From the NCBI GenBank assembly GCA_951406725.2, contig OX597818.1, forward strand, positions 124,310,001 to 124,374,000: DNA of 64,000 nucleotides, read 5' to 3'. Below the pieces are notes generated by a model. The model did no database searches, had not been told where the DNA came from, and saw only the letters and a program-made list of their open reading frames with translations. Origin of the DNA: Octopus vulgaris (lineage: Eukaryota). This document shows positions 3,660 through 46,316 of this stretch, one piece after another; the first letter of the stretch is position 1, and the number at the start of each line of letters is the position of its first letter. A program made the translations under genes and the position numbers.

Positions 3660-4445
3660 TATTTATTTATAAGAGTGAATTAAGATTTATACACAGAGAG
3701 AAGACCCTTGACAGGACTTCTTACATGCTAAACAGAGCAGTTAAACCCAAACTATGAAGAAAGAATTCTAGGATACACTGTTAATGGCACCAGAGTGGAC
3801 AAAATAAAAAATGAGTTAATCTCATACTCAAGTTTCGCTACTAATGACCAAATAAATTAATTTGGCATCCGTAGCTTGTCAGTGCGGTCGCTAAAGAATG
3901 CATAATTATATAGCTTTAATACGTACTGAAAACACGCACGCAAGACAGCCCCATCAAATTCAAATTTAGTGCGCAAGCGTAGTCAAATAGTTCAGCAGTA
4001 AATAAATTTAAACTGTACTATATGGCTTTCGAATTGGAAAATTTTGCAGTGTAAATATGAGAGTAAAAAATTTTAATAATGCATTACCAGTGGTTACCAT
4101 GTGTAATAAAAGTCATGAGACATAACTTATATTTATATATAAGAATGTATACAGATTTATACACAGGGTGAACAAAATAATAAAAAAACTCGAGTATGGG
4201 ATTAACTAATTTTTTATTTTGGTCGCTCTAGTGCCATTAACAGCGTGGTTTAGAATTCTTTCTTCGTGGTTTGAGTTTTAACTGCCCTTTTTATCTTGTA
4301 AGAAGTCCTGCCAAGAGTCTTCTCTATGTGTATAAATCTTTATACACTCTTATATATAAAAATGCGTTGTCTTATGACTTTTATTACGCATGCGAATGAC
4401 TGGTAATAAATTGCTTTAATTTTTTAGCCTCATATTTACAGAGTG
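3660..4445. repeat. Nested diverged inverted repeats (unclassified element)
   Basis: 3670-3835 is inverted relative to 4185-4355, and 4055-4165 is inverted relative to 4330-4440. Confidence 0.7.
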
Positions 4446-42876: not shown

Positions 42877-45136
42877 CAATGGAAAGAAGCAGTAAGGACT
42901 TTGTTGTGTAGATATTTTGTTATAAGATTATAAGGTGAGTGACTACATAGCTGCTCAATCACTGGTTTGTAAATACTGGTAATGTAATCTAAATGTTTCA
43001 CAAGTTTTAGTTGCTAGGTTGTTGCTGAGTTGTCACCGTTGTTTAGTCTCAGGTCAATCCTGATTGAGGAATCATGGTCTCACCTGTTGTAGATGACAGA
43101 TGAGGGCTTTGTAAGTAATTTGTTATTGAACAACCTGCACAAATTATTTGTTTATAGTGATCAAATGTTTGTGCTGTACATTGACTTCCTACCTCCATCA
43201 AATCAACATTGCTTGTACAGGTGCACAGCATGCCTATGTCAGACGTTGAAGTTGTTATTGCAGAGAAATGAGAGATGACGGGATTTGCTCAAGAACACAA
43301 TGTACCGCCTGGTCCTGAAATCAAACCCACGATCTCACAGTTATGCATACAACACTGTAGCCACTTGGCCACACACCCTCATATTTGAGCAATAGCCTTG
43401 AGGGACTAGTAGAGTGCTGAAAAAGCTGCTTTGTGGCATCTCTTTCTGCTCTTTTCATTCTGTCTTGGTGCCAATGTCCAGGACTAACCATCTGAACATG
43501 AAAGCACTCCATTCAACTTACAGTTGGTCACTATGGTCAGGTAGGCCTGCAACTAGAATATAGATAAGCTGGTAGCAGTATGCTAAGGTTTCATCCAGAA
43601 GGGGATTAACAACAGTTGATTGGACTGTAATAAAGAGAAAATGTACTCTGATCAATGTCATTCAATGTGTTCCCCACCTTTTATTTTTTTTACCCTTTTA
43701 AGACAGTAAGTTTTGGTTCCAGAGTTATTTATCAGTTATTGCTAGCAGTTTGAATGACCACATAGAGATTCCTTCCCTGGTTTGTATGTTAATCAGATGA
43801 GAGAATTTAATCTACCCCTTTACAGAATTCTGTCTATTGTTGGTAATACACCTAGATAAACTGGATTAAGAGAACTAGAGTACATTAAGAGTATAATGTT
43901 CTGTACAGAAACACAATCATATACTCACAGGAGATTTGAACTTGTTATCTATGAGTTTATCATTATACCTCACTGATTTGGCCATATCAGAAGTTCCACA
44001 AGCCAATAAGGTGGCCTGCATGTGGATTCCAAATCTCTCTCAAATCACACCCATGCATTCTTTAAAAAACAAAGAAAGAAACATATTGAACAATATAATC
44101 CTACGTATATAAATCGAAGAGGTGGTCATGGTTAGAGAGCTTGGATTATTGGCTTACTCAATCAACACAGTTTGAGGTTAAAAAACAAACATGACATACA
44201 ATAAAGAAGCCTCTACACAGTCACTCAACCTACGATAATTATTACCCTATCATTTCAAAAAAGGACATGCTAGATAATGTACTCCAAGACACATTATTCA
44301 TGAAAATATGATAGGTTAACCATGTCTTGAATATCTTTGGTTATAGTTCTGCCTAATCAGTGCTGACACAGCCCCAAAACCCCACTGAGGTTTGAGTAAG
44401 TTATATTTTCTCCCTTGTGAACACAGTATGGCCAAATGGTTAAAAATGCTCGCTTTGTAATTACAAGGTATATAAATCGAAGAAGTTCAGTTATGCTATG
44501 TGCATCTCAAATCGAAGAAGTTCAGTTATGCTATGTGCATCTCAAGCAAGTGTTATTTACCATAACATCAGAATGACCCAAACCCTGTGCATGAAATGGA
44601 GTTGAAAGAAACTGTACTGGAGGCCATCTGGTGGCTTTTACTTGGAATTTAAATGGTCTAGCCTTGTCACACTATATCATGCTGATACAGCTTGAGGGTT
44701 ACATGATAAGTACATGTGTCTGTGGAATACACAGCCACTTACACATCAATTCAATTATTCAGATAATCAAACAACAAATTACTCATTGTAGAAATTTAGA
44801 GAGATCCACTTGCTTAAATATTTTCATCAACACCTTACAAGAAAGTTACAAAGCCTAGAGATTCTTCTTGTTATCATTGTTTCACCCTGGGTCAACCATG
44901 ATCAACCAAACCTATATGCAAAGGTATTTCAACTAAAACTCTCCAATTTTGGGGGGGGGGTGAATGTGTAAGACTACATTATCTAACATGTCCTTGTTTT
45001 AGTTAAGGTTGTAGAGTAAATTATCTTATGTGTACTTGCTTTATTTAAGATTCTAGAATGTCATTTGATAGAGATTTGGCTGCTTTTTCTAGTATGTCAA
45101 GTTACCACATAAAGGTTCTTGTGACAGCTTATTATT

Positions 45137-45351
45137 ATTATTATTATTATTATTATTGTCTTGCAAACAACTGATCTAGCAAGCGGGGCCTCATATCAGT
45201 GAGGGGGGGGGGCGGTGCACATTGATGCCGTCGAGAGGTAGGCCCCAAAACGGCGCGCATTCTCTCCTGATGACCCCATACACTTGCTGGCTTCCGGTAT
45301 ACGGAGCTTTTGACTGGTAGCACTTGCATGTGCAAGTTGTTTGCAAGACAA
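45137..45351 (-). mobile_element. Fold-back GC-rich element with (TAA)n tail, flanked by a 117-bp direct duplication
   Basis: 17-bp perfect inverted termini at 45156-45172 / 45335-45351; 45020-45136 repeated at 45352-45468. Confidence 0.8.
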
Positions 45352-45914
45352 ATTATCTTATGTGTCCTTGCTTTATTTAAGATTCTAGAATGTCATTTGA
45401 TAGAGATATGGCTGCTTTTTCTAGTGTGTCAAGTTACCACATAAAGGTTCTTGTGACAGCTTATTATTGTTGTGGTATGTATCATTATTATTATTATTGT
45501 TTGTAGGGAGATGGAGTAACAGAAATGATAGAAAGCAGAACAAAATAGCTTGCAGTATTTAGCTATAGACCATTACATTCTGAATTCATATCCCACCAGA
45601 TTTGACCCTTGCCTTCGATCATTCCAGGGTTGATAAAATAGGTATTTGTTTGATATTAGGGTCGACTGTAGCAACTCCCCCTTCCATTGAAAACAGGTGG
45701 CCTTGTACCAATTTTATACATGTTGTTATTGTTATTGTTATGGTGATGACTTCACAGTAAAATGTATTTGTAATGCAGCCTCATTTGCTAGTCAGATACA
45801 TCTCCTTTCATTCCATTGCTGTTGCTTTTCATATTCCTTGAGAAAGGTAACAAACATTACAGCTTTCACTTCTTTCTTCAGTCCTAAAGATATGAGACTG
45901 TTGTTATAAATAGA

Positions 45915-46316
45915 GTGGAGGCGCAATGGCCCAGTGGTTAGGGCAGCGGACTCGCGGTCATAGGATCGCGGTTTCGATTCCTAGACCGGGTGTTGTGAGT
46001 GTTTATTGAGCGAAAACACCTAAAAGCTCCACGAGGCTCCGGCAAGGGATGGTGGTGATCCCTGCTGTACTCTTTCACCACAACTTTCTCTCACTCTTAC
46101 TTCCTGTTTCTGTTGTACCTGTATTTCAAGGGGCCGGCCTTGTCACTCTCTGTGTCACGCTGAATATCCCCGAGAACTACGTTAAGGGTGCACGTGTCTG
46201 TGGAGTGCTCAGCCACTTACAAGTTAATTTCATGAGCAGGCTGTTCTGTTGATTCGGATCAACCAGAACCCTCATCGTCGTAACCGATGGAGTGCTTCTT
46301 CTTCTTCTTCTTCTTC
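45915..46316 (+). mobile_element. SINE family C head with tail type 2 and (CTT)n end
   Basis: 10-bp TSD tataaataga at 45905-45914 / 46317-46326. Confidence 0.9.

Follow-up and report, generated by a model that had tools for sequence, protein, structure and literature searches.

The stretch of DNA analysed here (the window) is 64,000 nucleotides (nt) of Octopus vulgaris contig OX597818.1 (assembly GCA_951406725.2, positions 124,310,001 to 124,374,000, forward strand), and it contains a short insert with a GC fraction of 0.54, lying between two copies of a long direct repeat. It is probable, in our judgement, that this insert is a dead, 5'-truncated copy of the 3' untranslated region (UTR) of a HERO-like retrotransposon, left by a single aberrant insertion and carrying a conserved fold, likely that of a rewired hammerhead. 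The feature of the family weighs more than the locus itself, which is a dead fragment of a long interspersed nuclear element (LINE) with a rare, explicable junction.

The insert and its retrotransposon family

The features of the locus are these (LTR, long terminal repeat; RLE, restriction-like endonuclease):

45019..45136, plus strand: left copy of the 118-bp target duplication, with three mismatches against the right copy
45129..45158, plus strand: (TTA)9 TTG closing the duplicated target at the 5' junction; 118 family 3' ends have no tail in common
45156..45172, minus strand: inverted copy of the last 16-17 nt of the element; junction unique genome-wide
45171..45350, plus strand: 5'-truncated 3' UTR of a HERO-like RLE non-LTR retrotransposon, with about 97% identity to the closest copies
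45178..45288, plus strand: hammerhead-like fold
45351..45468, plus strand: right copy of the 118-bp target duplication, beginning exactly at the element 3' end; a contig joins element to flank in runs X6 and X7

A search of the octopus's own genome (2.8 Gb) with the insert returned 2,327 first-look candidates, and an exact 21-mer from the element 3' end occurs 1,106 times. The 29 siblings that were fetched share a sharp right end and run on to the left, for variable lengths, into an open reading frame (ORF) on the plus strand. Across 120 loci (not de-duplicated) a fixed 3' end is combined with variable 5' truncation and no fixed target, and copy lengths range from 23 to more than 1,500 nt. The sister copy L031 has an intact plus-strand ORF of 1,099 amino acids (aa) whose stop lies 10 nt upstream of the stretch matched by the insert, and the insert is therefore almost the whole 3' UTR. 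The encoded protein has an N-terminal C2H2-like finger and a reverse transcriptase (RT) recognized by a match to the RVT_1 domain; its CCHC motif and the PD-(D/E)xK motifs of an RLE were identified by eye and are without a Pfam match. Its best PDB matches are R2 proteins. A reading frame of more than 1,000 aa is retained in 10 of 38 long loci. These alignments identify the insert as a 5'-truncated plus-strand copy of an autonomous RLE LINE's 3' UTR.

The accessible part of PMC4640811 describes HERO as a largely non-specific RLE clade, and the family resembles it in having a single ORF, an RT followed by a C-terminal CCHC/RLE region, non-specific insertion and 5'-truncated copies. Hero families are listed for Octopus vulgaris in the available portion of PMC13282606, and octopus HERO also appears in that of PMC10294476. 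We call the family HERO-like, provisionally, on the basis of domain order, non-specific insertion and characteristic motifs. The 120 homologues listed include no labelled reference. Homologues of the family occur in Aplysia, lancelet and sea urchin.

Some members of the family retain both ends around an internal deletion (L058, L064, L073, L080, L087, L088 and L089), and several of these join approximately 4,000-4,150 to 6,400-6,700 of L031, making them possible non-autonomous derivatives. The start of the family 5' UTR (L066:770-920) contains five short hairpins with differing stems but the same G-GAAAGA-C loop. Hairpins with this loop are also seen in L227, L249, L272, L281 and L213, with similar ones in five of eight relatives checked, and they are possibly protein-binding or translation signals.

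Much of what first strikes the eye at the locus is private to it. A sequence-only reading had described perfect 17-bp inverted ends, and the arms at 45156-45172 and 45335-45351 are indeed 17 nt each and 100% complementary. All 39 other scored copies, nonetheless, lack query bases 1-9, their matches starting at base 10 or later; the arm-element junction has one match genome-wide, and exact inverted ends 4-400 nt apart occur at one locus in 2.8 Gb. Among 118 non-tandem family 3' ends there is no shared 3' tail. A scan for duplications spanning up to 60 bp, with longer ones sought by local alignment, found junction-anchored duplications of at least 9 bp in 8 of 105 copies, versus 0 of 105 mismatched controls. 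Of these eight, four fall within microsatellites, and the maximum length is 25-29 bp; 79 of the 105 copies have no duplication of 6 bp or more, and lengths otherwise vary. No duplication above 29 bp was found in the other copies checked. An apparent 145-bp duplication at L141 consists of two host repeats at 84% identity rather than a target-site duplication (TSD).

The sequence-only reading proposed a minus-strand, non-tRNA short retroelement or non-coding RNA (ncRNA) with a TAA tail and long TSDs, or else a miniature inverted-repeat transposable element (MITE), a proposal we now find scarcely credible. The single locus does have that look, with its arms and its minus-strand fold, but no sibling shares the terminal inverted repeat (TIR), the tail, the length or the TSD, and the siblings run without a break into an RT ORF that lies on the other strand. 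That reading had itself named the 3' UTR of a LINE as a possibility to check. A MITE was rejected because the TIRs are found at one locus, the junction is unique and the 105 copies show no short TSD of fixed length; on this point the earlier preference for target-primed retroposition, by which the insert was made, was sound. A short interspersed nuclear element (SINE) or retroposed ncRNA is contradicted by variable lengths, the lack of a common tail and the absence of any tRNA or Rfam match: a tRNA search of the insert was empty, in agreement with the earlier report of no tRNA boxes, and an Rfam search of it gave nothing near gathering score. The long TSD had also been compared with those of the RTE clade, but the ORF of L031 lacks an APE domain and only the window copy has a long duplication.

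Two further parts of that reading changed sense once the orientation was established. Because the element reads on the plus strand, the supposed one-sided TAA tail, a (TTA) x 9.7 array at 45129-45157, sits at the 5' junction and not at a 3' end. The right repeat copy holds (TTA)2 TTG where the left holds (TTA)9 TTG, and the tract in the left copy likely expanded by slippage. The extensive minus-strand folding is measurable (-77.5 kcal/mol, z -5.5), but without the nine left-most, private bases z falls to -1.2 on the minus strand (-0.3 on the plus strand), so that most of the significance comes from the closing stem. A structured RNA had been proposed, and a conserved fold does exist; its strand was wrongly assigned, the minus-strand arms being mirror images of hammerhead-like stems on the plus strand.

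The hammerhead-like fold and a possible circular template

In the window copy, the parts of this plus-strand fold are as follows:

45178-88, plus strand: P0, 5' strand
45189-204, plus strand: inserted hairpin
45209-13, plus strand: stem II, 5' strand (limits read from sequence)
45214-20, plus strand: extra stem, 5' strand (limits read from sequence)
45227-30, plus strand: stem III, 5' strand
45231-32, plus strand: UC, with the predicted cut at 45232/45233
45233-37, plus strand: stem I, 5' strand
45242-46, plus strand: stem II, 3' strand
45247-50, plus strand: GAAA, with G12 being A in the window copy (45247)
45251-54, plus strand: stem III, 3' strand
45255-61, plus strand: extra stem, 3' strand (limits read from sequence)
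45262-66, plus strand: stem I, 3' strand
45267-73, plus strand: CUGAUGA
45274-88, plus strand: P0, 3' strand

Eighty relatives were drawn from metagenomes; 39 reach the end of the ORF, and the 30 with more than 150 nt of UTR were scored, leaving out three shorter UTRs of more than 100 nt and six tiny ones. The full architecture (P0 - hairpin - stem II - extra stem - III/UH/I - II/GAAA/III - extra stem - I/CUGAnGA - P0) was found in 15 of the 30, with no occurrence on the reverse strand and none in 930 shuffles. The core bases CUGAnGA, GAAA and UH, together with stems I and III, are present in the family and its relatives; the window copy fails at G12. Over 12 lineages (11 distinct relatives plus the family), paired positions of stems I and III show 2-6 pair types, with several types at most of them, and those of stem II show 1-3, while H17 is A, C or U but never G. 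In the genome, the motif is intact in 51 of 105 copies and in all 12 long copies chosen as recent-looking. L031, scored alongside the relatives, fails through a mutation in stem I.

In all 15 matches, a canonical stem II following A9 has length 0, and a stem II of 4-5 bp pairs with an upstream strand instead. Visual inspection for a canonical hammerhead or an HDV-like ribozyme led to the rejection of both on this ground, stem II not following CUGAUGA. Judged against the unbroken-block definition of type SGC, the order S, G, C is present and block C is broken. The predicted wiring, with stem II apart from CUGAnGA, fits none of the six published permutations; according to the accessible text of Eckert et al. 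2023 (PMC10085705), stem II adjoining A9 was assumed to be required and the block was treated as fixed. We conclude that the family 3' UTR fold is likely a rewired hammerhead, predicted to cut itself, and that in the window copy the putative ribozyme is likely inactive because G12 is mutated to A. Neither a hammerhead nor a circular template in HERO was found in the literature searched, a scope that excluded most subscription journals, Repbase Reports and the supplements of PMC10085705.

The predicted cut lies 118 nt from the 3' end, and six copies have their 5' end precisely there; the length distribution would lead one to expect 0.6-1.3 (P ~4e-5 to 2e-3 if truncation is even). AT precedes five of these six copies (L197-L202); it is the commonest dinucleotide before 5' ends generally, and a weak AT target preference or a 2-bp duplication is possible.

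Partial tandems are frequent in the family. Upstream of the 5' UTR, 22 of 38 loci fetched by ORF start carry a 5'-truncated 3' piece (L060 and L077 being duplicates of one insertion), and in 20 of 20 distinct cases the junction has no added bases. Family 3' ends, in addition, run 0-7 nt into the start of the 5' UTR. Together these observations imply a template continuous across the junction. An Rfam search over the tandem junction gave no match. The predicted cut is crossed a second time in 16 of the 22 partial tandems, and most copies run through it; an active ribozyme would therefore imply a ligated circle. At the level of the family, the hammerhead would cut a read-through RNA, whose product would be closed by ligation into a circle; reverse transcription would then begin at a fixed internal position and occasionally go round more than once. 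In several metagenome relatives (L272, L245, L252, L229 and L226) the first 37-92 nt are repeated at or near the contig end, as circular or tandem templates assemble.

We lean, with some reserve, towards a HERO 3' UTR that would act as a hammerhead outside the six permutations, with stem II split and two extra helices, on an RNA that would be circularized and copied by rolling-circle target-primed reverse transcription (TPRT) from a fixed internal start; the window locus would preserve a past event in which that same enzyme omitted the second nick. Several points weigh against it. Half of the scored relatives (15 of 30) lack the full motif, L208 being a near match and several others truncated or more remote; the descriptor was drawn up when the relatives' sequences were already known; and the UTR consensus by itself folds no better than shuffles (z +0.1, plus strand). 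The pile-up at the cut site is modest: the upstream control comprised four true truncations at two positions among nine matches, and the downstream control let the native base pass, with none truncated among the 30 of 44 matches inspected. Wobble-compatible subfamily changes near the element 3' end were too few to use.

The competing explanation, to which we give distinctly less credence, is that the fold in the UTR serves to bind protein during TPRT and is not an active ribozyme, the partial tandems coming from template jumps, end to end, from uncut read-through RNA, or from transcription running through a tandem master copy. It gains from the displacement of stem II from A9, the position that the accessible part of PMC10085705 takes as required, and from the fact that most copies read through the predicted cut; the four longest upstream pieces (0.9-2.0 kb), moreover, contain no second full unit. 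Yet protein binding does not readily account for the recurrence of every catalytic core base in 12 lineages while the stems change, with H17 never G, nor for tandem junctions without added bases, nor for the excess of copies starting at the cut.

Origin of the junction and the 118-bp duplication

The direct repeat occupies 45018-45136 and 45350-45468 (119 nt, including one A common to the repeat and the element end), and its copies differ at 45034/45366, 45076/45408 and 45094/45426. The flanking duplication reported earlier as 117 bp with three mismatches is thus real, though 1-2 nt longer. In the inverted arm at 45156..45172, the first 2-3 bases are common to the target and the last 2 to the element, and the two 5'-end bases at which the window copy deviates from the family are those predicted by the arm. 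Microhomology between the end and the start of the cDNA amounts to 2 nt exact, or 4 of 5; where the arm meets the TTA tract, at a distance of 118 bp downstream from the first-nick site, there are 2-3 bases of microhomology. A second copy with an inverted 3' end, L155, is a 40-bp palindrome made of the element's 3' end and centred on the terminal hairpin, and inverted internal pieces of the element stand at the 5' junctions of L019, L068 and L194.

The inverted end and the 118-bp duplication likely arose from one aberrant insertion. The element reads on the plus strand with its 3' end abutting the right repeat, an observation that marks the first step; following the established TPRT mechanism, the protein would have made a bottom-strand nick at 45018/45019, from which about 180 nt were reverse-transcribed. 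The end of the cDNA may then have paired with the beginning of the same strand (4 of 5 bases) and been extended back as far as the element's end. With no second nick nearby, the strand would have joined 118 bp downstream through the 2-3-base microhomology at the TTA tract, which later expanded. Deletion between the repeats could subsequently have produced single-copy alleles.

Contigs from X1 and X2 skip exactly 332 nt and have one repeat copy, and X3 likewise has a single copy, judged by its three differences. These might be taken to satisfy the proposed search for an empty site, but the A that they share with the left copy at 45034 speaks against reading the X1 and X2 contigs as a pre-insertion allele. 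Unitig ends at 45047 and 45379 suggest that both copies in X6 and X7 have C at this first diagnostic site; the A of the window's left copy would therefore be derived. The flanks in X6 differ from the window at 13 of 457 letters, those in X7 also differ, and in both runs a 54-nt contig (25 + 29 letters) joins the element end to the right repeat. Two of these findings tell against the proposed history: the bridging contig's 25 and 29 letters fall under the 31-letter rule, and there is no clean pre-insertion allele, the single-copy contigs of X1, X2 and X3 carrying the derived-looking A. Those contigs are probably secondary deletions or a collapse of contigs or assembly. The insertion appears real and old. 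Part of the duplicated target (45059-45092 / 45391-45424) is a fragment of a high-copy repeat, as judged by contig depth and loose ends.

Two other routes to this structure were weighed. Twin priming, in which the top-strand target end primes a second reverse transcription on the 3' end of the element RNA and the two cDNAs are joined by microhomology, strikes us as rather unlikely. The target end TTG can pair with 2-3 bases at the RNA end, and the inverted internal sequences at L019, L068 and L194 would suit it; a single junction, indeed, leaves snap-back and twin priming indistinguishable, which counts against our preference for the former. Self-priming, however, predicts an inversion centred on the terminal hairpin, as in L155, the cDNA fold brings the two ends together, and snap-back is documented for the related R2 protein in the accessible text of PMC11371274. 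More improbable still is a duplication independent of the insertion, whether the element landed at the seam of an older host tandem or filled and empty alleles later underwent unequal exchange. The region is prone to duplication (an exact 35-bp tandem at 44474-44545 and, at 44971-45057, a degenerate 42-bp tandem that overlaps the place where the left repeat starts), no other copy exceeds 29 bp and no pre-insertion allele is proven. Against this, the right repeat begins exactly at the element 3' end, the divergence between repeats (3/119) approximates that of the flanks (13/457) from the haplotype group seeming to hold the insert, and the family does occasionally duplicate its target, as the comparison with mismatched controls indicates. 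A single insertion with a snap-back cDNA end thus remains our preferred account.

Elsewhere in the window, 45917-46100 resembles a tRNA-like SINE head with apparent A and B boxes (by eye), and 29083-31090 is a tandem array of 10.8 copies of a 186-bp unit (94% matches) that looks SINE-derived.

Comparison with known systems

Among hammerheads, the family fold is closest to type SGC and HRIMA-1, sharing the S-G-C order, all core bases and pseudoknotted stems, as far as the available part of PMC10085705 describes them. It differs from type SGC, within the same limits, in that the 5' strand of stem II lies upstream of block S rather than after CUGAnGA, and A9 continues into a separate P0 stem, linked via the inserted hairpin to stem II (PMC10085705). 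If the assignment is true, splitting the catalytic block in this way would add to the topologies known for a model ribozyme.

Penelope-like elements and retrozymes have classical hammerhead permutations, and GIY-YIG or no endonuclease. Zebulon, a pufferfish RLE element, reportedly has a partial tandem structure with a 5'-truncated 3' piece before the full unit, and the octopus family likewise has such a piece. The resemblance of the octopus family to Penelope-like elements and retrozymes, in the accessible parts of PMC4209133 and PMC7229834, lies in a hammerhead-like motif in a repeated end, partial tandems and a likely circular RNA. Unlike them, the family is an autonomous RLE LINE, and copying of such a LINE from a circular RNA, if true, would break the usual rule of TPRT from a linear RNA 3' end.

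For the locus itself, the nearest parallels are R2 and R9. Snap-back 5' junctions are described for R2 (accessible part of PMC11371274), and the available text of PMC13486585 relates loss of second-strand nicking to large duplications, with deletion by recombination expected, and gives a 126-bp duplication for R9. The window copy similarly combines inverted cDNA at its 5' junction with a long duplication and an expected later deletion between the repeats. As far as those texts describe them, the R2 events are site-specific and engineered, with duplications of about 1,000 bp, and the R9 duplication is fixed. The window event, in contrast, is a single natural occurrence, with 118 bp duplicated in a family whose insertions mostly lack a duplication, and it offers a natural example of outcomes shown experimentally for R2.
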